DNA from: Amoebophrya sp. A120
Lineage: Eukaryota > Protista > Dinoflagellata
Direction: 5' to 3'
DNA length: 64,000 nt
Assembly: GCA_905178155.1 (NCBI GenBank)
Contig: CAJINV010000009.1
Span: 2,829,373 to 2,893,372, forward strand
Shown here: positions 398 to 63,948 of the stretch, in pieces
Position numbering within the stretch: position 1 is the stretch's first letter
Layout: the number at the start of each line of letters is the position of its first letter
The notes under the pieces: model-generated
What the model was told of the DNA's origin: nothing
Database searches by the model: none
What the model saw: only the letters and a program-made list of their open reading frames with translations
Translations under genes and position numbers: made by a program

Positions 398-3300
398 TCA
401 GGGCGAAATAAAACGTCTCCAATGTTCGCCAGTTGTGTTAGAACCTTTTTCCTGCGCCACAGATTTCTGTGTGGTACCCTTATACGATACGGTGTCGAGC
501 CTGCGGCCTCCGCCACCGTCTACCCAGTTGTGCCAGGACTGCATCGATATGTCGCGCGTGGCGACATATTCCATACTAGTGTCGCCGTACTTGTTCGTCG
601 TTTTGACATACTTTACGCCCAGTTCTCGCTCCAGTAAATCGGCCATCTGTCTCCCCTTTGCCGTCGATCGGTCAAACATCGTGTGCCCCTCGGCGTCGAT
701 CTTTAGACTTCCAAAATGGCCGTAAGGTTCCCAGTCCTCCTCATACTCAAAGTCATCAGGAACCTGTGTCCCCGGAGGAAAGGGGATGGGGTACCCCACG
801 TAGTACGGGTTAACACGGCTCGGCGCTTTAAGGACGATGTCCTTCTCGGTCCACGGCACTTTTGTCGTTGTCCCAGGGATCTTCTTCGGTGTATCGTAAG
901 CGGGGACAGTCTCGTCCCAAGGCGCCTCTTTCCATTCCCCAGTCGGAACGGACTCAACGGTCTCCTCCACCTCCACCTCCTCTTCTGGTCTCCTAATGGC
1001 CAGCGCTATTTCGGTGCCGTCCGACTTTGTCAAGGTGCCATCGCGCATGTCGTAGTAGCGCCGCACCTCGTCCGCGTCTGCTACATCTTCATGCGGAACA
1101 TCAAGCGGTTGGTGTGTAACGGGATCCAGGATGTCTCCAGTCCGAACGAGTTTCCTCTTGCGCCAATCCTGGCCGACACCTTCTCCAAAATTATGAAAAA
1201 GCTTCATAAGCACGTGCTCGTACTTTTTGTGCAGTACTTTTTTTTGTCCCTCTGTTGCTTCAGTTGCAGGATCTTCCTCCTCTCCATACAATAAGATTCC
1301 AACAGCCCAATTCACGTCATCTCGGTCGAGGAAATTATCCCAAGCGTTCATCATATGGCGTTCTCAGCCGTTACATTCTCAACTGTCACAGGGTTCGTTT
1401 GTCATGCAAAATGACCATAAGCCTTCCGCAACACGATCAAGGTGCTTCGCATGACAAATTTTCGAAGGGCTCAACACCACCCGAATGTACCTAAATTTGT
1501 AACGCAAAGCGCGCAGTCTTCCCGAGTTCACTTTTGCTGTTCTTGCATGATAAATTCATGTTGTAACAGTTGAGAATGTAACATTTGAGAATCCCGTACA
1601 TCACCTCGCCTAATTTCGAACCGGCGTCGCCGAGACGTTTTTTGCCGAAAATATTCAAGTGATGAAACACGTCTCCTTTCACTTCCTGATTGATGATCCA
1701 TTCCTGCTCCTTCGGGGAAAGCTTCTCCCAGTCCTTCGGCTTTTCCAATAGGTTGTCCCATTTGTGGTCCCACTCGATCCGCTGGCCCTCGTCCCCAGAT
1801 ATTGCAAGCTCCTTGTCTCCGCCAGTGACTTCGTACCCCTTTGTATCAGGAAACAACTCATGGAGCTGATCAAGCACCCAGTCCTTATTGGTAAATGTTG
1901 GAACTTTTTTCACTTTTGACAAAGGTGCCTCGAGAACCTCCCCAACGTTGTCGAGGAGGTCTATCCCGTGGCTCTCGAGGAGATCTACCCCGTGGCGGTA
2001 CAAGAGGCCCACTGGCGACATCGACATGGCTGCCCGAACTTTTCTGATGTCGTTTACAACGGTCACGGCTCCGACCGCTCCATTGTGGACCGCATCCAGG
2101 CCGCCAGCCACTTGGTCTATGGAACCATCAGATCCGAAATTGACAAAGTTGGTTTGACTTGCAATGCGCCATGACATCGACTATTATTCCAGTTGGGCTC
2201 GTCGCAGTCTCTGATCGGCGCATGAAAAATTTTAATTTGCCTCGCCACCTCTGAAGCAAATAATCTGTCATACTGTTGAGGGCAAGAGGGCTAGCCCCCT
2301 CTGTCACGCTAGACAGCAGCCGACAAAAAAACTCTTGACAGGTGACCCTTACCAACCCTACAATCTGCCTCCCTTGCGCCCTCTGCCATGCAAGAGTCAC
2401 TCGTTGCACCGCTGTCGCGCTTTCTGTATGACAACCAACGTTATGGCGCGGGGGCAGAGTGCCTGCGCTGCGACCTTGCGGGGAGGAAGGGCCGCACGTG
2501 GTGGCTTTTCTTCCCCATGATGCGGGAGGGTTTTCTTTGAGTCAGCGCACCCCGGTCGCCCTGTTACAGAGAAAACGGCGTGGGCCTGGCCGGCGGCTGC
2601 GGAGCCGGCGCCCCCCTGGAAAAGTGCGCGCGCCCGGGCGCCACCAATGACTTGCGACGCCCTCCCTGCAAAAGCAAGCCCGAGGCGCTGGCCGCAGGGT
2701 GGCTGGCAGTCGCGGGCGCCAACATGGGTCCGGCGGGCGCTTGGCAATCCCACGACGCCACCTGGGCCCTTTTCTGCGCCCCCGGGCGAAGCGCCCCCCC
2801 ATAGAAAAAACCCGCCCAAGACCACGGGCACGGCCTTCGTGGGGGCTGCTCTGTCTCGCGAACGCGGGTGGCCCTGTTTCTGCACCCAAAGGGCTACCCA
2901 CGATCGACCAAGCAAGCGCGCGGCCTTCGTCCGTGGGGGCTGCTCCCCCGGGTCCGAGCGGGTCGGCTTCTGCGCCCCGCGGCGGGCTTCCTGGGCGGAC
3001 TGCGTACGCGGCCTTCCTGGGGGCTGCTCTACCGAGCCTGCGCGCGCCTGCTTCTATCTGCGCGCCTGGACGGCGCGCCCCCACCCGAAAAGGCTAGCCC
3101 AGGCCAAGGGTGTGGCTATCTTGGTGGGCTTCTCTCCCTAACCCGCGCGGGCTCGTTTCTGCGCCTCGGGGCGGGGCGTCCCTCCGGTCGAACTCGAACG
3201 GAGGGACTACCTGCGGGCGGCGGGACAAGATTGGCCGCGGCTTTCGCGTGCCTGGTTCGCTGCGCGGCCCTTGGCGGCGCGCACCCCCCCGGGCGGGAGG

Positions 3301-4439
3301 GCGCGTCGCGGCCGGGGCTCGCTCCGGCTACCTGCCCGATTTGTGCGGGTGGCCCGCGCGCCCGACGAAGGAATAGACCGGCGGCAAAGAGGGGCGTACT
3401 TTGTTGCCTGCTGGGCTTATGGACGTGGGCCCGTGTGAGCAGCTAGGAGCTACGGCGAGGCACATCTGGAAGCACTCCCCAGCGCACACCCAAAAATAGG
3501 GCCCGGAACAGGGGGCCAGGCGTATCGGCTTCAAGCGCGGTTGCTCGGTTGGCGGCCGCGCTTTGGCTTTCGGCCGGGCGCCAGTTGGTTCGTAAGAGTG
3601 GGGAGCGGGCTATGTTTTGAGGTACGCGCAGAGGGGTCGCTGGCTTAGCCAGTGGAAGGCACCCCAGAACAGGGGTCGAAACATAACCCAAAGCATAGCC
3701 CGAAAGAACACGCCCCAGATGACTCTCGAAAAATGGCGCCCGGGGTCGCGTGTCACTTTTCCGGAGCCGGTTCTGGCATATGTTTTGGGGCGTTCAGGAC
3801 GTTTTTGCCGAGTTGCGTCGTGTTTGACATCCCGGAACAGGGGTAGGAACATACCCCGGAGCACCCTGAAAGTGATCACTTTTCTTTTTGGGCAGTCGCT
3901 GCAGTTTAAATAGTAATGGCAATGTCAAATTTGTTGTCGACTTCAGGCCTGACGCTTCCATATGATCCACTGCTTGTTTTATTCAGTGGAACGACGTCCC
4001 CACCCCAGACTTCCCATGCAAAGCTGCATGCAGCCTGATACGTTTCTCATGCGCAGCCCCAAGAGGAAGCGCTTTCCAGTCCTATCTGGAAACTTGTCGT
4101 CCTAGACTCAGGACGAGGTGGCCGGTTTGTAATGCAGCTGCAAGACCGAAGCAGGATTGTAGTTGTACTGCGACCCCAGCGCTGTCATGCGCAACAGCCA
4201 AAACTTGTTGGTTATGGTTTGTGTAGCAAAATAAACACCCCTGGTGGGATGGGGACGTTTTTACACAGGATATGTTGATGCAGAAACCCCTGAAAATCTC
4301 CGCCAGGTATCGCTTTCGCCAATTCATGCGCAAACCCTTCCCCAAGGTGGTCCCCCAAATGGTCCATACCCGGCGGCAAGCCAGGCAAGCCAGGCAAGAA
4401 TGAAAAAGGGTGCGAAGTGGAGTAACAACTGAAATACAA
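398..4439 (-). CDS. Multi-exon hypothetical protein (gene 1), split by elements 3980-4272, 2118-3962 and 1354-1598; 5' end unresolved
   Basis: Removing each element plus one DR joins ORFs 4212-4439, 1491-2177 and 398-1354 in frame: ...GGDFQGFLHQ|QAVDQ|VAGGLDAVHNG...SKLGEVM|NAWDNFLDRDD... Confidence 0.8.
1354..1598. mobile_element. Introner-like TIR element, family B (245 bp)
   Basis: TATGGCGTTCTCAGCCGTTACATTCTCAACTG...CAGTTGAGAATGTAACATTTGAGAATCCCGTA; DR CATCA at 1349-1353 and 1599-1603; removal restores frame. Confidence 0.9.
2118..3962. mobile_element. Introner-like TIR element, family C, expanded to 1845 bp by a nested GC-rich repeat
   Basis: TATGGAACCATCAGATCCGAAATTGACAAAG...GTCGACTTCAGGCCTGACGCTTCCATA; DR TGGTC/TGATC; removal restores frame. 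Confidence 0.8.
2437..3912. repeat. GC-rich non-coding repeat X, copy 1 (nested in family C element)
   Basis: Colinear with 5131-6313 from the ATGGCGC..CAGAGT..GCGCTGCGACCTTGCGG start to the GCTGCAGTTT(A/C)AATA end; boundaries approximate. Confidence 0.75.
3980..4272. mobile_element. Introner-like TIR element, family H (293 bp)
   Basis: TATTCAGTGGAACGACGTCCCCACCCCAG...GGGGACGTTTTTACACAGGATA; DR TGTTT/TGTTG; removal restores frame. Confidence 0.8.
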
Positions 4440-4880: not shown

Positions 4881-6364
4881 TATCAACTGCAAATATGCTG
4901 CCTGGGTCTGGAAGAGGGCAAGTTAGTTTGTCACTTTCCAATTCCATGATCCATGGTGTCTGTAATGTAATATGCCATAGCATCACACATTTTTTGAGCG
5001 CCTGTCGATGCCGCGCTCGCGCATTCTGCTGCATGACAAATGCCCCCTCCGCGTAGCCAAATTTGACTCCTCTTGCTGCTCGTGGTCGTGCAATACTGAT
5101 TTTTTCAGCATCCAAACGCAGCATCAAAAACAAGGTCATGGCGCTGGGACAGAGTCCTCGCGCTGCGACCTTGCGGCGAAGAAGGGCCACCCGCGGTGGC
5201 TTTTCTTGCCCATGGCGCGGCAGGTTTTTTTTTGCGCCAGAACGGGGTGGCCCTGGCGCCCGTGGAGCCGGCGCCCCCCCTGGAAAAGCGCGCCCTTTTC
5301 TGGCCCCCTCGGCGGGGCGCCCCCCCCCCAAGGACTACCCACGACCAACCGAGGGCGCGGCCTTCCTCGGGGCTGTTCTCCCGAACCAAGGCGCGCGGGC
5401 CTGTTTCTGCGCCCCAGGGCGGGGCGCCCCCCCAAAAGGAATGCCCACGACCAACCGAGGGCGCGGACTTCCTGGAGGCTGTTCTCCCGAACCAGGGCAC
5501 GCGGACCTGCTTCTGCGACCCTGGACGGGGTGCCCCCCCCCCCCCAAAGGACTACCCACGACAGAACAACCGGGGGCGCGGCCTTCCTGGAGCCTGTTCA
5601 TTCTCCCGAACCGGGGCGCGCGGCCCTGTTTCTGCGCCCCTTGGCCGGGCGCCCCCCCCAAAGGACTACCCACGACGGACCAACCGAGGGCGCGGCCTTC
5701 CTGGGGCCTGTTCTCCCGAACCAGGGCGCGCGGACCTGTTTCTGCGCCCCTGGGCGGGGCGCCCCCCCCCAAAGGACTACCCACGAACAAGTGGGGGCGC
5801 GGCCTCCCTGGGGGCTGTTCTCGCCGCCGCGCCCCCCCCAATGAATAGGCAATCAAGAAGAACCTTCGGCCCCCGGGGTCAGGCCTGGCTCTTGAAAAGT
5901 GGCGTCCGGGGTCGGGTGTTCCTTTTCCGAAGTCAGGTGGGGGGCACGTTTAGAGCTGTGCAGGAGGTTTTTGCCGATTCAGGTCGTAGGAAATACCCCA
6001 GAGCACACCCCGAAACATACCCCAGAACACACCCCGAAACATACCCCAGAACACACCCCGAAACATACCCCAGACCATACCCCGGGAGCCCCTTTCCGAC
6101 AGTCAGGCTCGGTGTCGGGCCCGACTCTCGAAAAGTAATGCCCGGGGTCGGGCGTCACTTTTCCGGAGTCGGGTGTGGGGTACGTTTTGGGAGGTGCATG
6201 AGGAAATGGCCGACTTAGGTCGTGTTTGATACCCCGGAACAGGGGTCGGAACATACCTCGGAACACACCCCAAATGAACATTTTTTGGCAGTGAGTTGCT
6301 GCAGTTTCAATACTTAGTAATTCTTTGGCGCTTCCAGACCCAGACAACTTGTTGGCAATGCATA
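4881..6364. mobile_element. Family A TIR element interrupted by nested repeat X
   Basis: TATCAACTGCAAATATG..CTGGGTCTGGAA start and TTCCAGACCCAGAC..GCAATGCATA end; interior 4980-5130 matches the reverse complement of element 26712-26978; DR degraded (CATTA/GACTA). Confidence 0.7.
5131..6313. repeat. GC-rich repeat X, copy 2, with internal ~120-bp tandem units and a 22-bp tandem
   Basis: Units GCGCCCCCCC-AAAGGACTACCCACGA-...-GTTCTCCCGAACC recur across ~5300-5840; ACACCCCGAAACATACCCCAGA about 3.5 times at ~5990-6085. Confidence 0.8.
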
Positions 6365-6366
6365 GA

Positions 6367-8287: not shown

Positions 8288-10328
8288 TTATGCTGTCACT
8301 CCACGAAAAACATCTACACAACCAACACAGTAGTTTTCACTCTCTGCTTGGATATTCAGTTGGCCTTGTGCATTCCATGCGCCCTCGACTAGATCCAGTG
8401 TCGCGCTGTCCGCGCTGATTTGGAAGCTGAACAGAAGCTGCGCGAAGTAGACGTGTGCTGGTTGCAAGGATGGAGATCTTCGTCTTGTCATCTCGGCGCT
8501 TCGCAATTTTTCCAGAAGGAAGAGGAAAGACGTCGGCTTGTTTTCGTCCCCATTGGCCATTGACGGGAGCCAGCTGCGCGGCGTGGTAACATTCAAGACG
8601 GTTAAACTCGTGCTCTTGAACATTGCGAGACTCAAAGTAGATGCCCCGCGCCCGACTAGGAAATTCAGAAGACCCAGCGTAACTGCCGTCTGAAACACCT
8701 CCGCACCCGTCTCCGAGTCATTTATTCCCGGCGCACTTGTCCTCGCACTGTAGTTGCCGTCAATTGTTACGCTCAGTTTGAACTTTCTCGCTGTGGTTCG
8801 GGTCGCGGGCGTGATAGCCGGGGGCGGCAAAAACGGCGCGGCCCTTCTGGCCATCACCCCCCGAAGGGACTGCATGCCAGTCACTGCCGCGCTAATCGCG
8901 TGCAGCAGTGCTGCGGCTTCTGCAGCTGTCAGTGCTTGCGGCGGCAAGGCGGCCTCCATGCTGGCCAGGGTCTCGCTGTCGCCCCAAATTCCAAAAGAAA
9001 AGATCGCTTCGAGGTCGTTTGCGGAGTCGGTGGCGTTCGGAGCGGGCGTCAACGATTGGGCAGAAAACTCCGCTGACCCTGTCACGTTCTTCAAGCCGCC
9101 GCGCTCGAGGAAGTGCAACGTTCCTTCCTGCACCGCAGCAAGCAGACTCGGGTCCTTTAGCACGGCCGCTCTGTCTGGAATCAACGTCACATTGACGGAA
9201 AAGACCAATAAAAACTGTCGCAAAACTATCCAAGAAAAAAAGGTTGTAGTAGGTGTAACTTTCTATTATTCTTGGAGGATTACTAGCATCACAAATATCT
9301 CTCGCATGACACCAAAAGCTTGTCATGCGCAGATAGTACGTGAATAAAACAAGCTTGTTGAATGGACCCTACTACGCAGGCGCAGCATGACAGGCGCAAT
9401 CAAATTGCATCATGTTGCGCATCACAAATTTACACTAGCAATTTTTTTCTTGGATAAAAACCAGCCCCGTCGTGGTAGTGGTCGTGGTGGTGCTGCTGCT
9501 GCTCGGGGGAGCAGGGTAGACGGCCCGTCCTGCTGCTGCAGCCACGACGGGGACGGACACTGCCACCTCACGGAGCCCCGCTGCAGCAACTGCTGCGGAG
9601 ACTGCCGCCTCCAAGGCACGCAGCTGCGTGGCGTTCAAACCTTGCATCGGGTCCCAGACACTATCCACATCCTGCAAAACGTCATCCGGCACTTGTAGGG
9701 CAAACTTGAAAACTACTTCAAAGGCGCCGCCGTTACCGCTCCCCAACTCCGAAACGGCAATGAATTCCTCGCTGACTAGGTTGTTTGTTGAGCTAGTATG
9801 ATTCTGCAGTCGCGAAACACCCCCGTTCTTCCCGCCGACTGCCTCGGAGATGAATCCAAGACTGCCGAGCCCCACGGCCTCCCGCAGCACCTGGCTGGCC
9901 AGCAGGTCCGTGCGATTGATCGTCTGGCGCTGCAACTCCTCCACTGGCGCGAACACGAGAGCGAATTCGCGCTCGACCAACTTCATCACGGAAGCGGGGG
10001 CGGGGGCCGTCGCTTGCGCGGCCGTGCCGGTCGGCCCTGGCCCTCGTCCACTAGTAGGGCCTCGCGTGGTCCACTCGTCCTCTTTATCAAATTCGGCCCC
10101 GCTTTCTCTCGACGTCTCTTTGTGGTCCTCGCCGGCGCTCTTGCTTGCGGCTTCGCTCCAGCCATTTGCCCCCATGCCCGGACGGTGTCCAATCGTCTTG
10201 ACGCCGTAAACACCAGACGGAACGACGAAAGGCATCACGACTGGGTGAAGCGGCAGCCGGGCAGCTGCTCCCAGTAGAGATACCAAGGCTAGAAAGAGCA
10301 TCACGCTGACATCAACTGCAGCCATCAT
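8288..10328 (-). CDS. Predicted secreted/surface protein with three ~110-aa repeated domains and S/T/P-rich linkers; 3' end unresolved
   Basis: Hydrophobic N-terminus MMAAVDVSVMLFLALVSLLGAAA; ORFs 9435-10388 and 8288-9223 join in frame (TTTGLV|LRQFLLVF) after removing 9227-9456 plus DR. Confidence 0.8.
9227..9456. mobile_element. Introner-like TIR element, family D (230 bp)
   Basis: TATCCAAGAAAAAAA...TTTTTTTCTTGGATA; perfect DR AAAAC; removal restores frame. Confidence 0.9.
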
Positions 10329-32539: not shown

Positions 32540-32955
32540 TATAGGAGAAAGTCATACGCTCGTGCGGCTGCTCCTGGCCTTCGGCTTCCGCCTCTTCTTT
32601 GCCGCTGCCGTTGCGTGCCTGCTTCTCCTATAAAATGTAAAAATGTCTGGGTCTGGAAGAATGCAAGTTTGTCATGCTTGTCTGGCATGACTCTTAAATC
32701 TGTCATGCACATTACCAAAGAGCCCCACTTTTCTGTCATGCAGAAACGTAGTTTGTCATGCAGAATAGGCAACACCTAGAAGCTCAGAAACTTGTCATGC
32801 TGAGCCAGCAATTGTCGCCTCCTCATGATATACGCCACACAGCATCACAAGTTTCCAGACCCAGACATTTTTACATTTAATATCTCCAGGTAAGCTTGGC
32901 CCCGCTCCGCTTTGCCCGATCGACTGGACTTGCTCCTCCGCCTATTCTTGTCAGG
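32540..32955 (-). CDS. Two exons of a hypothetical protein
   Basis: After removing 32629-32882 plus DR: PDKNRRRSKSSRSGKAERGQAYLE|KQARNGSGKEEAEAEGQEQPHERMTFSY. Confidence 0.6.
32629..32882. mobile_element. Introner-like element, family A (254 bp)
   Basis: TATAAAATGTAAAAATGTCTGGGTCTGGAA...TTCCAGACCCAGACATTTTTACATTTAATA; perfect DR TCTCC; frame restored. Confidence 0.92.
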
Positions 32956-36690: not shown

Positions 36691-39654
36691 GTGGAACTAC
36701 GCCCCCCGGTTTGCTTCATCAATCTTGTCCTTCAGAAAAATACACGAGTACGAGCACGACCCATGGCCATGCCGGGAAAAAAGAATAAAAATTTGCGTTG
36801 CTCCAATCGCGTCACAGAAATAATCTCCGAGATGCGGACGACACGACCGCAAGAAATGAGATGGTAACTTTCTGCCATGCAGAGGGCAGTTTGGAACGCG
36901 TCTGATCGGCTATAGAGCAGTTGCCCGACATGTTAATCAATTAGGACGTCTCCATAAACTACAACTTCTGCACAATTATCGTAGTTATCGTAGTAATAAA
37001 AATAATTGCAATATCATTACTGCATGACAAATCTCCGAAATCTGGCGTCTTTGGCATAAAAAATTCCACGACTTGCCACACTGAGCAAATTTGAACTGCT
37101 AGTACTAGTAAGATACTTTTCCAATGTCTAATCTTCCATTACACAAATCGCAAACGCTCTGGCCGCAAGAACGGTCTCACTCTGACCGGCCTTAGTAACG
37201 AACGGCCGCCGCAGATATCAAGAAAAATTTAGCGGCATAAACTTCCTGTGTCTGGTGCTATGTACACGTGTACTTTTGTATAGGATAATTTTCTCGGCCT
37301 GCTGGGGCAGCTCCTGCGGAACATGATGTTGCTGATCTACACTATGAAGTTTCCAAGAGGTTGCGTTACATTGATAGCTGTTACATGAATCATGCAAGAA
37401 CTGCAAAAGTAAAAAGAAGAAGGGGCCTCGCATAAAATTTTGAAACGGATTACACCCGTCCTAGGAACAAGTACAACTACAAGCGGAAGCGCGCCGATAT
37501 AATTAAATTGTCATGCGAAGTGGCGTAACCGTGTTCCGCTGCCATGGGAAGCGGAAGCGAAGGCTGAAGCTGATATAAAGTAATTCTATGTTTTCCATGA
37601 CAAATCAGTAGAGAGCAGCAATCTGTGTCTTGCAACCTTGGAGAACTCCATATCCACCCAGCGCGTTTTGGATCTCAGCCGTCGTGCTCGTGCTCCGAAG
37701 GGTCGTCGACGCTGCAGCAGTTGCGTCTTGTTGCCCTGAAATCAAATTTTTTGTCCTCTTGCAGCTGATGAACAAGTAGGAGCTAAAGTATTTACTTATC
37801 AATCTTCATGCAGTGTAAGTAATAAGTTAAAGTAATATCATGACTATCAAACCCGCTGTTTTATCACTGGCGCGGAAGCTATGCAGATGCGGTCCAAAGT
37901 TTATGTCTGGGGGGAAGACTTGTGCGGATTCTGGAGGTGCTGGAGGACCAGACACTATTAAAAATGTAAAGTCTATAGTGTTTCGGATCTATGCGCAGCC
38001 AGCAAAAAAAGATCGATTTTTGTCTCCAGGATACAAGGGCGTTTTTTATACAGACAAGGCATGCAAAATTCCGGAACAAGCCCTAACCAGACTACGCTGG
38101 GCGCATGAACGGTTCATGCCATACAAATGAGAGGGAGGGGGACTTGTGCACCCTCATAAGTATAAGTTGCAAGGTGTGTACTATTATATAAAGTTGGTAC
38201 CCGCATTTTCGCGCAATCCCTCGACGTTCTCGTCGCCCGCGTACTATGCATTTCAAACATCGATCTCCGGGTCTCTCTGGAACAGCCGAAGGCTTCTCGT
38301 GCTCGGCTGATACCAGGTATAGAAAAATCTGTCATGCGTGCTGCGATCATGTACACATACAGGATCAAGACGAGGGCTGAATTATATGTTGACACTCTAA
38401 AGGCAAGACATCGCCACCCCTGACGAAGAAAATGCAAAATACACACGACCCCTCTCATACTATGTGAGCGCCAGGGTCGAAATTAACAAACTTCAAATAA
38501 TTCGCAGTACATAAAAGCTCAACATGGCGCAAGCCTCTTTAGTACTGTAATGGCTACCAAGGCGAGCCAGAAACTGCTCACGAACTGCTTAAGTTTCCTG
38601 AAGGTAACTGTATTCAAATTGAAATTGATGTCAGCTGCAGAGCAGCGCAGCGGCGCATGACATCGGTGCGTGACAAATTTTGGCAGGATATCAAAGACCC
38701 AATTTGCAATGCTGCTAGGGGCAAGGCAGGCTGTTTTTGTGTTGCTCCCCCGCAGCTTCACTATTACCCCGAAGCCCGAATTCCTATGCGCAGCGGTGCC
38801 AAGGTATTTCTATTGCAATTTTGTTGATTTTGAGCCTGGCGTCCCTAAGTCGCGTGGTCTAGAGAAGACGTAGTCCGCCCCTCGCGAAAACATGTTCCGA
38901 TGCGTGAAGACTTCGGAGGCGGCTGGCTTGCTTACCAGGATCTTCTCGTCCACGACGGCACGCAGGAGCTACTAGTAATAGCGTCGTAGTACCTTTACTA
39001 GACTATTATACGCTGGCGCCAAGGACGCCGGCGGCGGGGCGTCTACTAATACTAATAAATAACTAAATTTCTATACGAAGAACCCCAACAAGGGCTCTAG
39101 GAAAAAGCCGACGGCGCTCCCCAGAAGGTCGATCAACCTTCAGGGGAATCTTCAGGAGAGTGGAAAAGCCTTGAGAAAGGTACAAAAAAGCCTGGCCCTG
39201 TTTCAACATGGTTGGCTTTCTTGGTGACCTTCATCAGGCTTCGGCCCCCTGCAGGTGCTTTGCGAGCCTCCTGGAAGCCTTTCTTTAGGGCACCAACGCA
39301 GGCTGCTTTTTTCCTTTTGTGGTGGGTCTTTTGCTGTGGCTCTCTTGCGGCGGGCTTTTTGGCTTCTTCGCAGCTGGCCACCCGGAAAGAAGCCGCAGGC
39401 CGTCGCTGCAGGGACGCGCGTCACGCTTGCAGCAGCTTCCTAGCTTCTTGAAAAAATTCTCTGAAGAAGCGTCCCACGGCCCTTCTCTTAGACTGGCCTC
39501 TCAAGGGAAACGCTTAGCCGGAAACCGTTTACTTCGTACTTCCCTCTACGTCTAAAGGGCCAAAATTTGGAGCAAAAATTAAAATATTTCATTTTTACAG
39601 ACAGATTATTTTATTCATCCAGATGGACCGAGAGCTTCGACATTTGCACTTGAT

Positions 39655-45768: not shown

Positions 45769-46047
45769 TATCCTGAGTAAAAACGTACCCACACCAGAGT
45801 CAGGATGAGGATTTTGCAACACAAACCTAGGAGCTTTGTGAGTCACGCATGACAAGTTGCGCTACGCAGTGTAGTGCAGGTTAGCAAGTGCAGCCACATC
45901 ACAGATTCGTCTGCTCATCCTGTTCACAGCATCACAAATTCCAAAACACGATTGGAAATGGCTCTCATGGGGATGCGCATTACAAGTCTTCGCGTCTTTG
46001 CAAATCTGCATTACAACTCTGGTGTGGGTACGTTTTTACTCAGGATA
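45769..46047. mobile_element. Family H element with perfect ~32-bp TIR (279 bp)
   Basis: TATCCTGAGTAAAAACGTACCCACACCAGAGT...ACTCTGGTGTGGGTACGTTTTTACTCAGGATA; no matching DR. Confidence 0.85.
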
Positions 46048-46068: not shown

Positions 46069-46310
46069 TATGGCGTTCTCAAACGTTATACTCTCAACTG
46101 TTACATGAATTTGTGACGCAAGAGCCGCAACAGTCAAAGGCACAAGCTTGCTGCTTTTGCATCACAGATTTGGCACGGAAGATTTAGATGCTGTCTAGCC
46201 CTTCGGAGATTTGTCATGCGAAGCAGCTTGATCATCTACCGACGCAAGGCAGTTTAGCATGACAAATTCGCGCAACAGTTGTTCAGAGTGTAACGCTTGA
46301 GAACACCATA
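46069..46310. mobile_element. Introner-like element, family B (242 bp)
   Basis: TATGGCGTTCTCAAACGTTA...TAACGCTTGAGAACACCATA; DR AAATG/AACTG. Confidence 0.85.
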
Positions 46311-46389: not shown

Positions 46390-46621
46390 TATGCAAGAAA
46401 AAAACTGTGTATAGTGTAAGTCTGAGATGCAAAAAATGCAAAACAGAGTTATACTTACACTTGTCATGCTGGACCTGCGTCAGAGGCTCGTCATCTTTTC
46501 GTACGTGTTTTCCCGTACTAGCCGCGCACATGACAGGCTCTCTCTGATGTCATGCAGAGCAAACTCGTGATGCTATTTTTCTTCCAAGAAAATTACACTA
46601 ACACAGTTTTTTCCTTGGATA
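46390..46621. mobile_element. Introner-like element, family D (232 bp), inverted relative to the 56946 and 63349 copies
   Basis: TATGCAAGAAAAAAACTGTGT...ACACAGTTTTTTCCTTGGATA; perfect DR GCTTT; flanking minus-strand ORFs join in frame (DSPEKA|TACLLC). Confidence 0.9.
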
Positions 46622-48448: not shown

Positions 48449-49105
48449 CTATGGTCTCGGGGCCGTGGCCGTGCGCTGGCTGATGGCAAACGAGTCATCT
48501 TTCGAAGCGAGAAGCATGGTGCCCGGAAGGTATGACGCATTGTCCTTGTTGTTCCGTGCCCTCGCATTCCTCTCTTGAATGTATTGCCCCAGCGGCGGCG
48601 GTAGGCCCGGGGGGCCACGCCTCAAATTTAGTTGGCAGTACTGGTACATTGCGTCCCAAGTTGGAGTGCCTTTGCGCTCACCCTTCAGCACACTGTGGGG
48701 CATCCTTTGCAACGTCTTCAGCGCTTGCTCACACTGACGGTCGTCGGCTTTTGACATTTGGGGGGTGGCCAGCGCGGCCTCTTGCAACTCCTCTCCTGGA
48801 GGCATGCTATCCCAGAGAAAAAAGCTGGACATGCATATTTGTAATGCAACAATAAATACACAGAAAAACTTGTCATGGGTGGCCCCATAGCATGCTGCTT
48901 CGTATATGCCATGCAGATTCTTTTTTTTTGTGTGTTTATTTTTGCATTACAAATATGCCCTGCCAGCTTTTTTCTGTGTGATACATGCCTCCCCCTATCC
49001 AGATGAAAACCTCCCTCCTCAGGCTAAAAGGGAAGCCTGTGCCGGCGCGGGATTTTTCGTGTACGCCAGTCAGCTCTGTCCTGCAGCTGTAAGGGACTGC
49101 AGGCA
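48449..49105 (-). CDS. 3' exons of a hypothetical protein
   Basis: Removing 48808-48983 plus DR gives ...FSLRREVFIWIGGGM|PPGEELQEAALATPQ... through to the stop at 48449. Confidence 0.6.
48808..48983. mobile_element. Introner-like element, family F (176 bp, ~55-bp imperfect TIR)
   Basis: TATCCCAGAGAAAAAAGCTGG..CATATTTGTAATGCAA...TTGCATTACAAATATG..CCAGCTTTTTTCTGTGTGATA; perfect DR CATGC. Confidence 0.9.
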
Positions 49106-52100
49106 GATCTTAGTCCTGGGCAGGGATGTTTCGAGGTGCAGATGCTTGGTTCTCAGCATGACAGACGCCAGCCTTGCTGTAGCAGGCTTATCAAGAGCAT
49201 GATCATACACCTCCTGCATTATGCAGCGGACCATCTGTGGCGCGCAGTTGCCTTCAGGTTGCAAGACGAAGACCTGGGCGATCAGTGGTCACAAATCTAC
49301 ACTGCATAATTTCATTCAGACGCGCACCCTTCCGGTATGGGGAGGGAGGATTTTCCCTTTCGATAGCATCGAACCCGACCGCTATTCCAGATAGTATGAC
49401 AGCACACAACCCCCCCATCATTATGCAAAGAAAACAGCGCTACTTCCAGTTACGCATTGCGTTGAAGGCCTAACAAGGCAAACGAGTTCTGTCATGCCGG
49501 ATATGCACATCAGCAGCGTGGCCGGATATACACAGCAGCTGGGACATCGTTCAGCCTGCTTCTGTCGCCCGCATGGCCGGGCAGAAAATTTTGCGGGCTG
49601 AGGGGGGTAGTTGCCTACTGTCATACATTCTTGTAGTTCTTTTTCGCATTGTTTCACCCTGTCGAGGCGATCTTGCCTCTTCCCGTGCTGCTTTTCGAGT
49701 ACGTGGCTGTATCACACAGAAAAGCAGTGGCTCGCCCGTTGTAGTGCGTAGAAGTGGAGGGCGCTGCAGCACTAAAAAAAGTGCAAAAAGGAGTACAAAT
49801 AGCTTCTACCTACGTAGACAATTTTTTCTCGTGCACATAAAGAGCGCCACTCTCTCTATGCGCGAAAGTGGAACCCATGAAAAGGCCGCAAAAAGTCTCT
49901 GTGCTCGACAGAAAAGAGGCACTTTGCTGGTGTTCTTTGTTTGTGCGATGGCAAAAATTGCATGACAAGTTCCGGCATCTATCGCGAGTGCGCTTTTCAT
50001 TCTGTGATATCTCCATGTGCGCTCCTTGTTGCGGGATCGTGTCCGCACTAACTCGTCCCTCCGCATAGGCAATATCTCACAACGAAAAAAGCCCCGTCCC
50101 CACCTGCTACAAACTTGAAATAATGCCACGAGGCGACGTCTAGACGAGCACGCAGGTAGTGCGGCCGTGCTGTTTCTTTTTTTGGGCGGGGAAGTCGCCG
50201 CCCCTCTATGTCTTTGTGTCCGCCATGCCCACGCGCATAACATCGCTCCGCGTGCAGGGCGTGGCGCACCACAAAAGTCGCGAGCAAAAGTGGCGGCCCC
50301 GTTGCTTTCAAAAGCGGGGCGCCGTCGTGCATGCTAGGGCCTCCGCCGAGGCCGGGCCCTTGGTCACCCAAAGTCGGGCCAATAGCATATAGCCTTGCTG
50401 CCCGTCAGCGAAGGCGGAAGGCGGCACGCTTAGGCTTTGGCCGGCTTTCCTTTTCTTTAGTGCCTTTCCCAAAAAGCTTCGCTTTTTCAAAGCGCCTCGC
50501 TTTCTGCTGTCTTTCCCCGCCCTGCAAGCTAACAAGCTGCCGACTTTGGTAGCCGCTTTCGCCTTCGTTCCTGGACAGCACAGGCGAGCTGGAACAAATA
50601 CGGCCGAGGTTATGCGGATTTCGCCTCTTCCCCCCGGCATTGATTTCCTGGCGCCCGTTTGTGGGCACCCCAAAGCAGAAGGAATGCGACGTCGATTTGG
50701 GAAATTCAAAACATCAAGGCTCAAAGTTTGCAAATGGAGCAGAGCAAAGCTTTTGCGTTGGGCGAATTTCCTCCGGGGACGGAAGCTCAGCAATAGGGCC
50801 TTTACTAGCACGATCTGCCACACTAGCTGCGGCCTGCTGCTCATGACATGCGCTCGCAAAAGTACATATGCCTTACAACAGCGCTGGCGCACTAGTAAGG
50901 ATATAATCGCATGAAGGTTGATTTGGTGTATAGTTGACTTTTTCATATAAGGTTGAAGGGCAGAGTCACGTAAGAAAGCGGTCCCCACATGATATCTCTA
51001 TTCTCGGTCCTTAGCAATAGCAAGCAAGAAACACGACCGACATAGGATTCATGCTTCGAGTCCAGGCTCTTTTGGATGGACGGCGGGTGGGGGGGAACAT
51101 TCAAAGCAGCCGAAGGCTTGGAGACGTTTTGTAGTAGGCATAGGGACAGGGGGCATTGTTTCGGACGATAGAGCTTCCCCTTCAGCATTGTTCCGGTATC
51201 ATACAGAAAAGCACACCCAGCACACCCATACCATGTCAAAAAATGTTTGCGCTCCTGTTTGCGGTGTCACAAGAAGCGTACTCCCACCCTGGCTGACGGT
51301 GATTGTTCATTATGCTTTAAGGGTAGGAGCTCGTCCCTTTGCGTTTGCCTTTTCTACGGCTACTACAAGCAACGAAGCGGAAATAAAGCTACGCTACCGC
51401 TAGATTCTATCGAATTATAATGCTCCTGAAGCGCTTCTTGCGTGCATGGACGTGAAATCTCGAGGCCTTTTGTAAGAGCGGCGCCGGTAAATGATGCAGA
51501 CGAGACGCGCAAAGCAGCAAGCACAACGAGCAACATGGGGCAGGGTCCATGCAGCAGGAGCCAGCTGCCCCGCTCAGCATGACAAGGAAATTCATCGGGC
51601 GGCGTCTTGGTCTTCTCTAAAAATCTAAAATCAATGTAATCATTCTCTTCCTGGTCCGCATTTTATTTACCCTCTCAATTAGAATGATAAAAGACTGCCT
51701 GTTCTGCGGCTCTACAGACAGCAGCACGCACTTTATTTTGACAGAAAGAAAGCCACGCAAATCGGATTTCCCCTGGTGTGGGAGATGTGGGTGTGCTTGT
51801 TTTCTGTGGGATACTTTGTAGTGCCCGAGTATCTCCGCATCGAGGTCCGCTATCGTGTGGAAAAACGTCCCCGCCCCACCATTGTCCAGACGCTTGGAAT
51901 TTTGCTACATCGCAAGCTAGTGCAGCCGCATCGCGAGCCGACCACTTCATGCTGATTCTAGCATGATGACAAGCATCCACGAGACAGCATTTGACACTGC
52001 TCCTCATTTACATTGTAGGCGTGCAGATTTCCATGATATAGCGCCAGCCATGCTCCGGCTAACGCCGGGGCCAGACTGTTAATCGATCAGACCACAGCGC

Positions 52101-53149
52101 CGCGGTTCTCCGCACAACATTCAAGATCAAGACCGACTAGAGCTCCGGCGCCTGTTTCCACCATGCCAACCCATCGGACCACTTGCACGCTTCCCGCGCC
52201 TTCGGGCGCTCTGCGCCCGCGGGGGGCAGCTGCAGCGAACATCATTGGGGGCGAACAGAGCCCGTCCGGGTGCTGAAGCGGACCTCTGTTCTGCTTTTTT
52301 ATAAATCGCCGGCCCGCGCCCAACTTCGCGGCGCCGCCTGTTGCTGGCGCGAGGGAGAGCGTGGCGCGGGAGAGTGGCGCGAGAGGTTGGCGCGAGGGTT
52401 GGGCGGTGGAAGGCCCATCGCAGTCCCGTAACCGGCGCACCACCATGCGGATTAGCAATTTCCTTACCCTCTCGCCCGCCCTCTTCGTGACCTCTATCGG
52501 GGGTCCCCGCTAATAGTCGGGCTATATTACTCGCGGGCAGAGGGCGACAGAGGTGGCCGGGAGGTCGCCGAGAGGTTGCGCGAGAGGTCTCCCCTTATTC
52601 GCGCAACCCCTCGGCGCCTCTGTCCACCTCTCGCCCGCCCTCTTTTCTACCTCTCTGCCACCTCCGTGCCGCTTGCTTCGCGGCCCCAAAGGGCGGCCCC
52701 TCTGGTGGGCTATAATCGACGCGCCGCCCCCTCTACTCGGCCACCCTCCCGAACTACTTCCCGCGCCACCCCTCCACCCCTGTCGACCTCTCGTCTACCC
52801 TCTCTAGACCGATATTTTTACTCTCGCATGAATACAATATTTTCGCATGAGTACGTAGATAGTAATGGGCTTGGAACGTTTTTCCAAAGCAGGATAATAT
52901 CCTTTATACCTCCCGCTCCCTCGACACTCCCGTTCGCGCCGAACTGCCATATCAGGTTGGAACTTTGCAGAATGGCAATCAAATTCGAGGTGTCGCGCAA
53001 TAAGAAGTAGACTAATAATAGCGATAGCATGTATATCTATGGGATGAACCAGGCGTAAATCAGGCGCCGCACCCTGGGACCAGGTATCCTATGGGCCAGC
53101 TACCCGCCGGGGGAGCCCGGAATTCTGTGAGCGGGCGGAGCAGGGTAGT

Positions 53150-54579: not shown

Positions 54580-54833
54580 TATGGACTTCTCAAACGTTAC
54601 ATAGTCAGCGGCTACATGGATTTGCGATGCACGAATAGCAAAAGTGAAAGGAAAGACGAAGCGATTGCGTGTCTTGCATTACAGGAGGCAAGTAATCCGG
54701 CACGGATTCTGCTGCAGCTACTGAGCGCGCCGAGAACTTGTCATGCGGGCAAGCAGCTTGCGTGTGATGCTGATGGTAATTCTGCATGAAAATTCACGCA
54801 ACAGCTGACCATGCAACGTTCGAGAATCCCATA
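54580..54833. mobile_element. Family B TIR element (254 bp)
   Basis: TATGGACTTCTCAAACGTTAC...GCAACGTTCGAGAATCCCATA; DR degraded. Confidence 0.7.
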
Positions 54834-56766: not shown

Positions 56767-57510
56767 TCTGCTAACCTGCTTCGGTGCTCCTCCACAAACT
56801 TGTTGAGCGCGGGGTGATTTGGAGGTGGCCCCTTGGGTTGCGGTGTTCCTCCACCTTCACCAGCCGCAGTCGCTGCCCCGGCAGAGCTGCAAGCAAGTCC
56901 CGCTACCGCAGAAGAGGAGATCCTCACTAGCCGCCGCCACGATGGTATCCAGGAAAAAAAGTGTGTAAGTGTAACTTTCTTTGAGAAACAGCATCACAAA
57001 TTTGCTCTACATGACAGAGAAGACATGTCATGCGTGGCTTGTAGGGGAAAACACAGTTGAAAAGAGGACTTCGTGGCTGTCTGGCATGACAGGAGTAACT
57101 CTGTTGCATGTTCTGCAACACAAATTTACATTTACACAGTTTTTTTCTTGCATAGATGGAATAGGAATTGTTGTCGTACGCCGCATGTTCTGTATGGAAG
57201 CGTCAGGATCGAAATCGTCAGAGTTGAAATAATTTGTCATGCATAAAATGCAGACCACAAAATGCCTGTCTTGCAGAGTAGGCAAGTGAGGCAGATTGTA
57301 AGCCTGTTGACGGGTAGAAAGTGAGCCGCTACAGTAGCATTACAAAAGGCGTCTTCCTTACCAAACACCATGACAAACTGGATTTAGGTTCTACCAAAAT
57401 TTGTCACGCGCCACTTAGAAACTGGGTTACACCTGGCATCCAATTTAGGCATGGCAAATTATTTCACCTTTGTCGATTTCAAACCTGACACATCCATATT
57501 CTGCATCTTG
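56767..57510 (-). CDS. Three exons of a hypothetical protein (possible N-terminus)
   Basis: After removing 57193-57498 and 56946-57154: KMQN|MRRTTTIPIPS|WRRLVRISSSAVAGLACSS...NKFVEEHRSRLAD. Confidence 0.6.
56946..57154. mobile_element. Introner-like element, family D (209 bp)
   Basis: TATCCAGGAAAAAAAGTGTGT...ACACAGTTTTTTTCTTGCATA; perfect DR GATGG; colinear with 63349-63562. Confidence 0.9.
57193..57498. mobile_element. Introner-like element, family C (306 bp)
   Basis: TATGGAAGCGTCAGGATCGAAATCG...CGATTTCAAACCTGACACATCCATA; perfect DR TTCTG. Confidence 0.9.
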
Positions 57511-58746: not shown

Positions 58747-58983
58747 TATGCAAGAAATAAAACTGTGTACACGTCCATTTATATAGAGTGAGTCTGTGAC
58801 GCAAAGCATGCAGCACACTTGTCATGCCATGTTGAGACCGTATGATCATTTAAGTTTAACTGCATATTTATGTGCTTTGTTTTCACGCATTGGCTGTGCG
58901 GTATGACAGGCTTTCTCTGTTAGGCAAGAGAAATTTGTCGTGCTGTCAGTCACGACCCCAGGACACCGTTTTTTTCTGGGATA
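58747..58983. mobile_element. Family D TIR element (diverged)
   Basis: TATGCAAGAAATAAAACTGTGT...ACACCGTTTTTTTCTGGGATA; DR not matched. Confidence 0.65.
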
Positions 58984-59472
58984 CACATATACAACAAGCT
59001 TACTTACTTCATCTTCCTCTACAAAAATGCATAGCGAGGGACATACTTTCCGTTCCAGCATACACAGTTCCAACCGCTGGCCTGAAAAAGAACCGCTAAG
59101 GGACGATGATAAAAGCTAAAGCACAGTAGGCTTATTAATTTACGCGCACAGCTGCCAAGCAATTCCATAAAGTTGCACCGCCCCCCGGACAATTTTCCGC
59201 AGGACCGTACGTAGTTGTCGCTGCATTTCGTCTCAGTTCGTGTTTCCGCCCCCAAAGCGGAGTCACGAGATGAGTCAGCTCGCTCCTCCGGGGGTGTGCC
59301 TTCCGCTCGTCCTCGGAGCTGTTCCACACTTCACAGAATCGACCGCAACCGATCCCGAGGGCTGGCTTCGATCCTTCCTGGGGGGACCTGGACGCAGCTC
59401 ATCCAACTGGTATCGATTTTATGCATTGCAAATCATTTCAACTTTGTCGACTTCGATCCTGACGCGTCCATA

Positions 59473-62400
59473 GTACTGCTGGTATCTTGTTGATCCACAT
59501 TGATTTATAGGTTGTGATACCTTCGAATTCGCACGTCTTGAGTTGCATGTCCGGCACGTCTTGAGATGAATTTGTACTGTCCTTGCATGGAGGCCGACAA
59601 AAGCGCAGCTCCTCTTGAGGTCATGCAACAACGGCATTTGATGCATCTGTCTTGCGCGCCATGTCGCATATTTCTTAAGAGCAGCAGCGAAGCCTTCTAG
59701 AAGCTTGTTGTCAAGATCCTTCGCTGCGCTCGCAATCAAAAATGTTCCAGTTCCTCACATCAATCGATCCTGGCATCACAAAACTCCGGACCCAAATCGA
59801 AATTTTTTGCATTTGATACTTATCTACGCATTTATCTTGCCGATGTAGCAACACAGATTTTTTGTCTGCAGCATGGAAACCTGCCAGCTCCAGCATACGA
59901 AGATTGATCTGTCATAAGTGATGTTGAACACAAGCACGGAGGACCAAATACGCAGTACTTACCGGGCAGCGTCTGAGCAAAAGTTCGCGCATAACTGCAA
60001 ACATCTGAGCTCCTTGCCGCTGTCAAGCTTGTTGTAGTGCAGTGGGTTGTGTATCTTCAAGGAAAACTACAGGAAAAAACATTTTCTGTAGTAGTACGAT
60101 CTGACAGCAACATCACAAACTGAGCACTAGCACATCATACAGTTTGAATTTTCCAGGAGCGATGTCGCTCAAATAAACAAGTTAGACATGACGAAGACGA
60201 CCATGACCACGGCAGACACCAGTTAAAAATGTCATGCTTCTTCTAGAATGAGAATTGTGAAATACACCAACACAAATGATATTGAAAATAGCAGGCCGAC
60301 TGGGCTGCGCTGCTATGTTATGTTATAACCTGCGCAGGTGTTAGAATCTCAATTTACACAGTTTTGTCTTGCATGAAGAGCATGAAAAACATGCGCACAG
60401 CCTTGCACTTTTCGCAATACAAACAAACGTTTGAGATTGTAACACCTGAGCGGGCCATATATGTCTACTGTGCATCATCTCCGTGATCTTCTTCTTCTGC
60501 CTCCACCTCTATGGAAGTGTCAGAATCGAAATCGATAAAGTACTAGCGGAGAAAAAGATTTGCAATGCATAAAATGCAACCATAAAATGCAATGCACAAA
60601 GTAAAAGTGCCTCTCTTGCGGGGATGGCAAATAGTCCGGCTGATTGTCCGCTAGTTTGGCTTTGGGATCCTCTGATATAATAGAGCTGCTAAAGTACTAG
60701 CAGGGCCATTCTGTGCCCAAACCAACAGCGCGACAGATTGGATTCCGATGCAGCTGCCAAAATCTATCATGCGCCATTTGAAAACTGGAATCCAACAACC
60801 GGCATCCACTTATTTTTGCATTGCAAGTTTTCCTATCTTTGTCGATTTCGATCCTGACGAGTCCATAACGGCCGTGTCTGCCGCGCTACTATGGGACTCT
60901 CAAGAAGCGTTAGTACTTTGTTTGCTGTTACATGAAATTGTGCTGCAAGAAGAGCGAAAGTGAAATAGAATTAGAAATGCAAATATATTCATAAATCCTC
61001 TCGCATTTTACAAATCCGGCACAGAAAATTTCCATGCTATTTGGACCTTCGAGAATCTGTCATGCGAAGTAGTCTGAAGATCGTGCGGAGGCTTCTAGTA
61101 CGAGATCATGGTAAAAATTCTGGAGGGTGAGAGATGATTGATAAAAGCAAACTATGTAGCCGCGTTTGAGGGTTGTCCCAACATACGGCTCCGTGCCTGG
61201 TTCATCTGGGGCTGGTTTCGGCTTGTTTTTTTCACCGTCATTTTTCGACGAATTTGAAACTCCTTTAGCAGCTTGGTCCTTGTCCCCTGCTGGGCTAGCT
61301 GCGTTTGCCGCTAGTCCTCTGCATAATGCATTGCAAATATGTCTGGGTCTGGAAAGTTGTGACCACGCATATCAGTGAATAGAAAGCACACTGTATCTGT
61401 AACGCACCGCAATAAAGCATCACAGAATTTCAATTTTCAGTCGCTTCGTGTCGCGTATTCCGCATGGGACTAAAACAGCGTCTTTGCATGGTAAACAACC
61501 CGAGCTCCTGCTGGCTACGCGATACAGAGCTCGGTGCCATTCACGACCAGCATGCCAACTCTCGCATGCTTCCAGACCCAGACATATTTTCAATCCATAT
61601 GCTCCACTCTTCGTTGATTTTGTGTTCCAAATATTTGCCCAACTATGAAAGTGCACGACTCCCCCTCCCCCTCAGTTGTCAAGCAAAAGCCCAAATCCAG
61701 TCGCTGCCTTGCGGCACCGTTTGCATGACAAATTTCGGGGGCCCAAACGGTAAACAGTAGCAGTACCACAGTTGGTGCATAAAAAATTTCATTTGTCACG
61801 CACGGGCTCCAAGGTCGTCAGTGGCGTTTGTGTTGCTCCTGTTCATGCCATGCAACAAAAGAGGGCAGGGGGGGGTTGTGCACTCTGATACCAACACTGC
61901 GAGAGCGAGAAAAAGACCGGGGTGCAGGAAGAATAGCACTCGGCCTCCCGCCTGAGGCAGGAGAGAACCAAGGGAGGGAAACAGGTTGACCAGCACGTCC
62001 TTCATTTGAAACGCCGGCTCGTATTCCAGCTCGAAGGTAAGGAAAAAGCGGACGGCAAAGCATTGCAAAGAAAAGGGCCCCCTTCCCAAATTGATGAATC
62101 AACACGCATCTTCCTTCCGAAATTCTGCGAGGCGGATTTGTGGCCATAAATCTGCATTGCAAGAAGACAAATCCAGAGAGCAGTCCGCCGGCGTGTCAAT
62201 ATACAACTGCAGACGAAGATTTGTAACGCTGTGAGGCCAACAGGCACAGGGCAGACCTCTGCCATAGCCGTGCTAAGTGCCTCCACAAAAAGATCCCTGC
62301 CTAAGGCTTAGGTGGATCTGTGCGCAGGAGTCCTGCTCTCATCTCTACTGCAAGACAAACTCGATTTTCTCTTCCGCACGTATATGATCCCGCATCATAG

Positions 62401-63948
62401 ATTTTGATTTCCATTCTGATATAATGGGGAGGGGGAACCTTTATTCTATATTGGGATAAAAAGACGGCAATCCCCACGTTGCCCAACAGGTAGGGTCGGC
62501 TTTCGAAAATTTCTTGTTGCAGCATGGTTGATAGCGTATGCTTTGCAAAAGTATGGCATCGTACTCGTATACCTAAACCTATACATTTACATGCATTACA
62601 AATTTCATGAGAATTAAAATCTGTAATGCGGATTTACCTTGAGAAGTACATTTGTAATGCATGATTGCAATTAGAATTACTACCCTACGTACGAGTACGA
62701 TACTTTTGCATTGCATATAGGGCGGTCTCGGCCAACAAGTCAAAACCGGCCACCAGCGGGTATCAAATGCAAAAATGTCTGGGTCTGGAAACTTGTGATG
62801 CAAGAAAGGGAGTAGTGAACTCACTCTAATGCGCTGCCAAGCATGACAAGTTTTTTCCGTGGTTCTGAGTTGCGTACCCCGCATGAGAAACTGAGTTTTT
62901 GCATGACAGGGAGGAGGAGCTCCTCGCGGCCATGCAACACAGAGTTCAGAGTCACGCCAGACAAGCATGACAAATCTCGCAATCTCCCAGACCCAGACAT
63001 TTTTACATTTGATAGCGGGTCTGCGGTCACAACCTGGAAGAGGGAAGAGACGGTGCAGCAAATCAAAACCTGGTTGTAGTAGCCGTAGTATTTCTTCACT
63101 TGCTCGAAGCGGGTCAACGGCTTCTGGCCCGGCTTCTTGCTCTTCTTCTTCGTCTTCTTCGCGCCGTCACTTCGCCTCTTACGTGGGGACGATGAGGTCG
63201 AGGAGGACCTCGATCTTCCTGTATTTTTCGCGGCTTTTGTCGTTGATCCCGGCGGAGGTGATAAGTCCCCGCCGGCGTGGAGGTTTTCAGGTGGATCACC
63301 ACTACCACCATCCCCGGGTCCACCTCCGCGATCAGCGCTGGAAAACAGTATCCAAGAAAAAAACTGTGTTAGTGTAACTTTCTTTGGCTGACAGCATCAC
63401 AAATTTGCTCTACATGACACAGAAAACCTGTCATGCGGGGTTTGTAAGGGAAAACACGCATGAAATGAGGACTGCATGGCTGTCTGGCATGACAGGCGTA
63501 ACATAACTCTGTTGCATGTTCTGCATCACAGATTTACACCTACACAGTTTTTTTCTAGCATAAACAGCATACTGCCTCCATTGCTGTACTTTAACCGCAC
63601 CCAAGGTAGGGCCAACGCAAGACCGCCCGCCACGGTTTTAATAGTACCCTTCGCAGACGTCGCACCGGAGGACCCGCTGAGCTTCACGTGCAAGTCGGTG
63701 GCGCGGATTTTTATCTTTCTGGGCCGCCCGCCCGGTACTGCAGCCTCGATCGCACATCGCGCTCCTTCGGGAGTTGTTTGAGTTTTGGATCGCACCTCAG
63801 GCGGGGCGATGAGATCTCTAGTGGGACGCCGGGCCGACCACGACCACGACCACCTCGTCTCTCTCTCGCGTGGTAGTACGTCGTCGAAAAATAGCAGGCG
63901 CCTCTCCTGCTTTGACGGCAGCGCTACTGCAGTACTTCTGTAGTCCAC
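59473..63948 (-). CDS. Multi-exon hypothetical protein; 62450-63948 rebuilt in frame, lower exons only partly assigned
   Basis: ...YSNGGSMLF|SSADRGGGPGDGG...KPLTRFEQVKKYYGYYNQVLICCTVSSLFQVVTADP|LVAGFDLLAETAL|STMLQQEIFESRPYLLGNVG across three elements; further exon-like ORF pieces at ~61155-61320 and ~59473-59740. Confidence 0.7.
60510..60867. mobile_element. Family C TIR element (358 bp)
   Basis: TATGGAAGTGTCAGAATCGAAATCGATAAAG...CTTTGTCGATTTCGATCCTGACGAGTCCATA; DR ACCTC/ACGGC. Confidence 0.75.
61324..61599. mobile_element. Family A TIR element
   Basis: ATGCATTGCAAATATGTCTGGGTCTGGAA...TTCCAGACCCAGACATATTTTCAATCCATA; exact left end unclear. Confidence 0.75.
62537..62717. mobile_element. Introner-like element, family E (181 bp)
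   Basis: TATGCTTTGCAAAAGTAT..ATCGTACTCGTA...TACGAGTACGATACTTTTGCATTGCATA; DR TAGCG/TAGGG; frame restored. Confidence 0.8.
62761..63014. mobile_element. Introner-like element, family A (254 bp), inverted relative to 32629-32882
   Basis: TATCAAATGCAAAAATGTCTGGGTCTGG...CCAGACCCAGACATTTTTACATTTGATA; perfect DR GCGGG; frame restored. Confidence 0.92.
63349..63562. mobile_element. Introner-like element, family D (214 bp)
   Basis: TATCCAAGAAAAAAACTGTGT...ACACAGTTTTTTTCTAGCATA; perfect DR AACAG; frame restored. Confidence 0.92.

Follow-up and report, generated by a model that had tools for sequence, protein, structure and literature searches.

The stretch analysed here, referred to as the window, comprises 64,000 nucleotides of the dinoflagellate Amoebophrya sp. 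A120 (contig CAJINV010000009.1, positions 2,829,373 to 2,893,372 of the forward strand). It carries several families of short inverted-repeat transposons, non-coding and 110–400 bp long, which begin with TAT, end with ATA and are flanked by 5-bp target duplications, together with a minus-strand host gene that they interrupt (Table 1). Seventeen end pairs in the window combine a perfect 5-bp repeat with a good inverted repeat, compared with 0.4 in shuffled sequence. The elements resemble A120 introners, described as ∼240 nt long, of many families and in co-oriented genes (Farhat et al. 2021, PMC7789003; Gozashti et al. 2025, PMC12130899; here and below, statements on published work refer to the accessible parts of each paper). 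Common features are an inverted repeat made up of TAT, seven variable bases and an A-rich stretch, short direct repeats (3–5 nt as published, 5 bp here) and non-canonical splice ends. Elements of strain A25, by contrast, begin with TTA. Our subject is an internal sequence word, spaced in a regular manner, that these families share.

Ten elements between 59416 and 63561 were skipped in RNA-like contigs from runs X3 and X4, which represent one sample and whose RNA status is a guess. Wherever both ends were intact, the contigs skipped the element and 5 nt more, and in the minus-strand sequence, once joined, a 423-codon frame stays open across eight junctions. Non-GT-AG ends occurred among the removed elements. 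At introns 60507–60869 and 60886–61186, which are separated by a 16-nt mini-exon, the splice points slide within the 5-bp duplication (2+3 vs. 1+4 nt) and take GT..AG when available. The segment 59820–60318, with motif sites at 59847 and 60230, was kept in these contigs 3′ of the stop codon and perhaps represents unspliced relics in a 3′ untranslated region. Reads over 24001–44000 gave repeat coverage and no usable splice junctions, and raw-read runs X9 and X10 covered element fragments and nothing else.

A first-pass annotation of the window had pointed to two 8-mers inside the elements. GCATGACA has 27 forward and 33 reverse matches and GCATCACA has 18 and 11, giving 89 in all (45 plus-strand, 44 minus-strand), where an order-2 Markov model predicts 2.7 and 2.4, or ∼5 together. 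Among all 8-mers of the window they rank first and third. Profile searches assigned 15,458 bp (24% of the window) to elements, and this DNA contains 77 of the 89 matches, although the profiles include the motif themselves and weak profile matches are therefore partly circular. In 200 dinucleotide shuffles of the same DNA there were on average 2.6 matches and never more than 8, so the reported enrichment is real and survives composition matching. All eight single coordinates given for the word were correct to within one base, and the long exons 20659–23064 and 24771–26320, where it had been judged rare, contain no match; six and four exact matches lie in the copies at 32629–32882 and 62761–63014. 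The true word proved longer and more degenerate than the 8-mers. An expectation-maximisation model trained on the whole window widened it to a 12-column matrix with 238 sites, and the 72 sites in the family consensi described below give an 11-letter consensus, GCA(T/A)(G/C/T)ACA(A/G)(A/G)T, whose GCA and ACA halves are nearly invariant. We regard the shared word as a real and likely functional feature.

A scan with the end of family A (F01 in our numbering) recovered 157 loci, all in one related assembly, with copies up to 96% identical to those of the window. With nine overlapping loci removed, 423 elements were called in 668 kb (window included), a few singleton calls among them probably false. 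These fall into 53 interior clusters, and 14 families have at least three members; F01, with 185 copies, is over-represented owing to how the loci were found. An exact 5-bp direct repeat flanked 42 of 46 family-A end pairs picked without a duplication filter, and a 6-bp repeat flanked none. Family-weighted base frequencies at the termini were 0.98–1.0 for TAT, a TA(T/C) start having been imposed by the element caller, and 0.68–0.89 for A at positions 11–15. Strong motif sites were present in all 14 family consensi (2–8 each), and among the 410 elements of at most 450 bp, 406 had at least one and 398 at least two. Exact matches numbered 996 in 98,987 bp of element DNA (10.1/kb) and 13 in 90,120 bp of long open reading frame (ORF) interiors (0.14/kb). 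Positions 4–14 of the terminal repeats were also considered as a motif copy; the match was clear at 1 of 28 family ends (F02) and reached p<0.05 at two, and the idea was rejected as a general one.

The first-pass annotation held that the word unifies unrelated families. A single word does run through families with different terminal repeats (19–81% identity between families at positions 4–30), but "unrelated" was an overstatement, because some family interiors align. With motifs masked, z exceeded 4 in 6 of 91 family pairs and 3 in 16 of 91, and 100 of 153 columns align between F06 and F08 although their terminal repeats are only 37% identical; TAT...ATA ends and 5-bp duplications are common to the families. 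Since masked interiors still align in some pairs, sequence comparison indicates one superfamily whose ends have diverged or been swapped. The interiors do not all align as one ancestral element, as most pairs lack spacer similarity (median z 0.44). Two intervals (36800–38700 and 54400–55700) had been thought to hold older elements with no surviving terminal inverted repeat (TIR). They mostly contain recognisable copies of the same families, decayed or intact, and the copies at 37343–37652 and 54580–54833 do retain inverted repeats.

In 13 of the 14 families, conservation is higher in the motif cores than in the rest of the interior columns. Among 109 copies from 10 young subfamilies, inherited variants were 4.1-fold rarer in cores than in spacers (0.073 vs. 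0.301 per column), a gap for which descent alone is insufficient, and single-copy variants were 1.6-fold rarer (0.022 vs. 0.035). Stronger core constraint on inherited than on single-copy variants is expected if selection acts mainly on copying. The word reflects both shared descent and function.

The sites are also regularly spaced, a feature that the first-pass annotation had not noticed. Same-orientation pairs 30–34 bp apart numbered 20, in 10 of 14 families, against a null mean of 4.1 and a maximum of 11 in 3000 placements, and this peak averages 31.6 bp, or three turns of B-DNA. With family A masked, 131, 61 and 40 pairs lay at 31, 32 and 33 bp, with further peaks near 15–18 and 46–51 bp. 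The best period among all site pairs within 70 bp was 16–17 bp (z 5.3), and midway in several 32-bp units there is an inverted copy that has decayed. The first site keeps the same facing and lies 30–31, 39–44 or 51–53 bases from the terminus at 21 of 28 family ends; these distances, in steps of ∼10.5–11 bp, fit a 10.5-bp period (p ∼0.002; one end per family, 12 families). Examination of spacing and polarity relative to the TIRs, as the first-pass annotation had proposed, thus revealed preferred spacings and an end-phased first site, though no fixed orientation. The spacing of the motif therefore points to a protein-binding site. A separate observation is that the first-to-last site span is 144–147 bp in F05, F07 and F12 and 216–217 bp in F06, F08, F09 and F10, despite differing terminal repeats.

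We think it probable, though well short of certain, that the array provides double-stranded DNA binding sites for a mobilising protein supplied in trans, in the manner of CACTA subterminal repeats. The protein serving these non-coding elements would be an integrase-like transposase or a TnpA-like helper, and the TA...TA ends suggest an integrase-like enzyme. Several copies of the protein would bind at 16/32/48-bp intervals, beginning in helical phase with the element end, and once loaded they would help bring both ends together. An element whose sites or spacing are lost would have few descendants, so that the word would persist even as terminal repeats and spacers diverge or undergo swapping. 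The terminal hairpin and the duplication, and not the word, would be what splicing depends on. The earlier proposal of a common site for a trans-acting factor thus stands as far as constraint beyond descent and the spacing are concerned; a shared transposase is something we infer, and the searches described next did not find the factor.

Several observations weigh against this proposal. A transposase or autonomous element, which the first-pass annotation had suggested looking for, was not found in the <1 Mb covered by inspection of 13 long elements, by ORF signatures and by a Pfam scan of 68 ORFs (the longest among 285 locus ORFs of at least 200 codons and the window ORFs), and the accessible text of Farhat et al. 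reports none in A120 (PMC7789003). The 1.6-fold deficit of single-copy variants in cores allows selection after insertion. A 10.5-bp period among all site pairs within 70 bp was unsupported (z −0.8), and the first site faces the other way at 7 of 28 family ends. The spacing tests were framed after the pattern had been seen, the families are not independent and mirrored ends were counted twice.

Known systems provide partial parallels. In CACTA (En/Spm) elements, which are bound by TNPA (PMC2613891), a ∼12-bp motif is likewise reiterated in direct and inverted copies inside the ends and acts in cis as the determinant by which non-autonomous elements are served in trans. CACTA elements differ in their termini and in their 3-bp rather than 5-bp duplications; their terminal repeats are constant and their motif variable, the reverse of the situation here, where the 16/32-bp lattice of the array extends through the entire interior, the elements are spliced and the binding protein is putative. 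Integrase-like IS3EU and GingerRoot elements (PMC10045372, PMC6839031) share TA...TA termini, TIRs and little target preference, but their duplications are 6 bp long and the elements described here are non-coding; the term "subterminal" is absent from the main text of both papers. One A120 family with TA/TA termini and duplications of 5 bp has been described as Ginger-like (PMC12130899).

The main rival to a mobilising protein is a DNA-binding protein of the host. By marking the elements on the chromosome it would serve silencing, chromatin packing or the co-transcriptional definition of non-canonical introns in a lineage said to lack U1 snRNA, such that only array-bearing elements would be tolerated in exons. 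This reading fits most of the same data, and we consider it unlikely but worth serious attention. Strand indifference and DNA geometry agree with it equally well, as does the rarity of single-copy variants in cores. All ten spliced introns, old decayed ones included, retain at least one site and nine retain at least three, and U1, like a transposase, was not detected in A120 in the accessible part of PMC7789003. However, constraint is far stronger on inherited (4.1-fold) than on single-copy (1.6-fold) variants, copies called as interrupting coding sequence have no more sites than uncalled copies (p 0.17 and 0.96; a weak test), and transposition machinery accounts more naturally for phasing to the exact transposon end. 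Alternatively, the word might merely have been inherited from an ancestral 16/32-bp repeat array and have no function today. Between some families the interiors align, motifs included, at ∼65% over 110–160 columns, and both the spacer-only similarities and the decayed inverted copies within 32-bp units are what a remnant would leave. Yet the conservation of cores in 13 of 14 families, four-fold in young subfamilies, largely refutes this explanation, and most family pairs have kept word and spacing without spacer similarity; we rate it as very improbable.

We think it quite improbable that the word acts in RNA, be it as a single-stranded site for a splicing factor or through pairing of complementary copies, which would close the intron into a long hairpin. 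Hairpin-guided splicing has been proposed for A120 introns (PMC7789003), and opposite sites pair in the predicted folds of most families, where the outer pair often lengthens the terminal stem; given this pairing, the word may have an added role in RNA. In F04, however, all six sites face the same direction, so motif-motif stems are impossible, and motif-motif pairing is at most 0.23. Sites are confined to one strand in 63 of 410 elements, and among ten F04 copies called in genes, for which splicing is predicted from reading frames, four lack a sense site and six an antisense site. Host strand was called with a coding model for 227 elements, unanimously at 26 of the 28 loci with at least three calls; as a check, 4 of 10 known junctions passed the threshold and all four were called correctly. 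By these calls families occur in both gene orientations (57:48 for F01, 4:6 for F04), and sites are conserved to the same degree whether sense or antisense (0.827/0.828 and 0.900/0.894). Indifference to transcription direction, together with the one-strand F04, argues against an RNA signal or motif-motif pairing, and the single-stranded splicing-factor site that had been offered as one explanation is disfavoured. The RBFOX-type GCAUG is a splicing element of single-stranded RNA; the sense-strand bias in presence or conservation expected of such an element was not observed. An RNA role also leaves the fixed direct-repeat spacing unexplained.

The motif site is also associated with GC-rich DNA nested in the elements. 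One kind of insert, internally repetitive, lies at 2436–3915 and 5131–6315 in the window and at 6774–7570 in locus L030, and begins 11 bases after the start of a matrix site in all three copies. These sites score 7.9, 11.0 and 15.3, where a score of at least 6 is reached by 0.4% of positions. The L030 insert is flanked by a 46-bp direct repeat ending in the motif, and the motif-side end folds as a hairpin in two copies (z −5.8 and −3.5; −0.5 in the third). A second kind (∼52044–52840 in the window, L022 777–1543, L112 18–72) has a similar terminal hairpin and occupies the last motif slot in both of its hosts (F04- and F08-type), with weak site scores. A general scan for GC-rich inserts after motif sites gave no clear further cases. 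In this small sample the inserts look like retroelements of the non-LTR type (without long terminal repeats) that use the motif site as target, because the duplications are long and variable; the first kind is possibly a motif-targeting non-autonomous retroelement. A literature search on motif-targeted retroelements returned nothing specific among the matches listed. Other nested inserts without TIRs lie at L030 714–1293, L032 10393–10548, L059 688–862, L002 5880–7489, L008 13618–14593 and L060 3978–4286, some with short microsatellite tails or 11–30 bp duplications. Several of their breakpoints are in or beside motif sites, but sites cover much of the interior in any case.

A broader scheme, which we consider doubtful, would have one DNA-binding factor read a spaced 11-bp code in all introner families. 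The factor would build the transposition complex; if it stayed on the DNA, or if a host protein imitated it, the element would be flagged for removal by the spliceosome with no need of U1 or of fixed splice dinucleotides. A retroelement-like hyperparasite would home to the same site.

Elements of this type and reiterated subterminal binding sites are already known. Neither the internal word common to the families nor its spacing came up in literature listings or in the accessible running text of PMC7789003, PMC12130899 and the reviews PMC11282704 and PMC11453091. Published A120 families are grouped by inverted repeat and overall similarity. What mobilises Amoebophrya's tens of thousands of non-canonical introns, and how they are spliced, are stated open questions (PMC7789003). 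A motif shared by families previously kept apart offers one diagnostic by which old copies can be annotated, a signature by which to seek an autonomous partner and a bait for pull-downs, and it suggests that the 1,954 published A120 families may largely be one superfamily served by one factor.

Table 1. Elements, element-introns and host gene in the window. Letters in brackets are the family names of the first-pass annotation.
Feature	Position	Strand	Remarks
F05 (B), TAT...GTA inverted-repeat element	1354..1598		5-bp duplication; sites near 1397, 1448, 1495, 1544
F08 (C) element, split by GC-rich insert ∼2436–3915	2118..3962		insert directly after site at 2425
F04-type element	3980..4272		motif sites confined to one strand
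F01 (A) element, split by the same GC-rich insert as 2118..3962, ∼5131–6315	4881..6363		insert directly after site at 5120; right end read off the sequence
F03 (D) element	9227..9456		5 exact motif matches
F01 element	26714..26978		4 exact motif matches
F01 element	32629..32882		6 exact motif matches; 5-bp duplication
Run of decayed copies: F02, F05, F07, F08, weak F01	36967..38775		first of the intervals once thought to lack TIRs
F04 (H) element	45769..46047		motif sites all in same orientation
F05 element	46069..46310		sites alternate, ∼48 bp apart
F03 element, opposite orientation	46390..46621		
F11 element, near-palindromic	48808..48983		motif variants only
F04-type element with second-kind GC-rich insert	51851..52896		insert at last motif slot; site decayed
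F05 element, inverted repeats intact	54580..54833		within second interval once thought to lack TIRs
F03 element	56946..57154		
F08 element	57193..57498		
Host gene	58844..64000	minus	spliced form: 423-codon open frame over 8 element-introns; 2 further introns downstream of stop
Spliced element-intron, GT..AT ends	59416..59819	minus	3 weight-matrix sites
Spliced element-intron, 136 + 5 nt	60319..60459	minus	
Spliced F08 element-intron, GT..AG ends, 358 + 5 nt	60507..60869	minus	
Spliced F05-type element-intron, GT..AG ends	60886..61186	minus	only 1 strong site
Spliced F01 element-intron	61320..61599	minus	
Spliced F07 element-intron, 247 + 5 nt	61639..61890	minus	
Spliced F06 element-intron, one end decayed	62057..62459	minus	
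Spliced F02 element-intron, 181 + 5 nt	62531..62716	minus	motif variants only, no exact 8-mer
Spliced F01 element-intron, 254 + 5 nt	62755..63013	minus	
Spliced F03 element-intron, 214 + 5 nt	63343..63561	minus	

Searches of other collections added little. The family-A end had no match in a viral collection, where two two-site patterns gave two and none, and Rfam gave none. Thirteen matches in prokaryote genomes look like local tandem repeats or chance and were set aside. Short bacterial tandem repeats with the same word at 17–34 bp spacing (L163, L164, L165, L166 and L169) are probably coincidental palindromic repeats.

Within the window, the 7 kb from 12000 to 19000 are mostly GC-rich and contain neither an exact motif match nor a profile-matched element. 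A minus-strand exon at 19067–19906, without a Pfam match, encodes a very cysteine-rich stretch. An 807-bp TAT...ATA element at 19901–20707 has no exact motif match and no ORF seen to resemble a transposase; its length is that of published A120 families 38 and 196.

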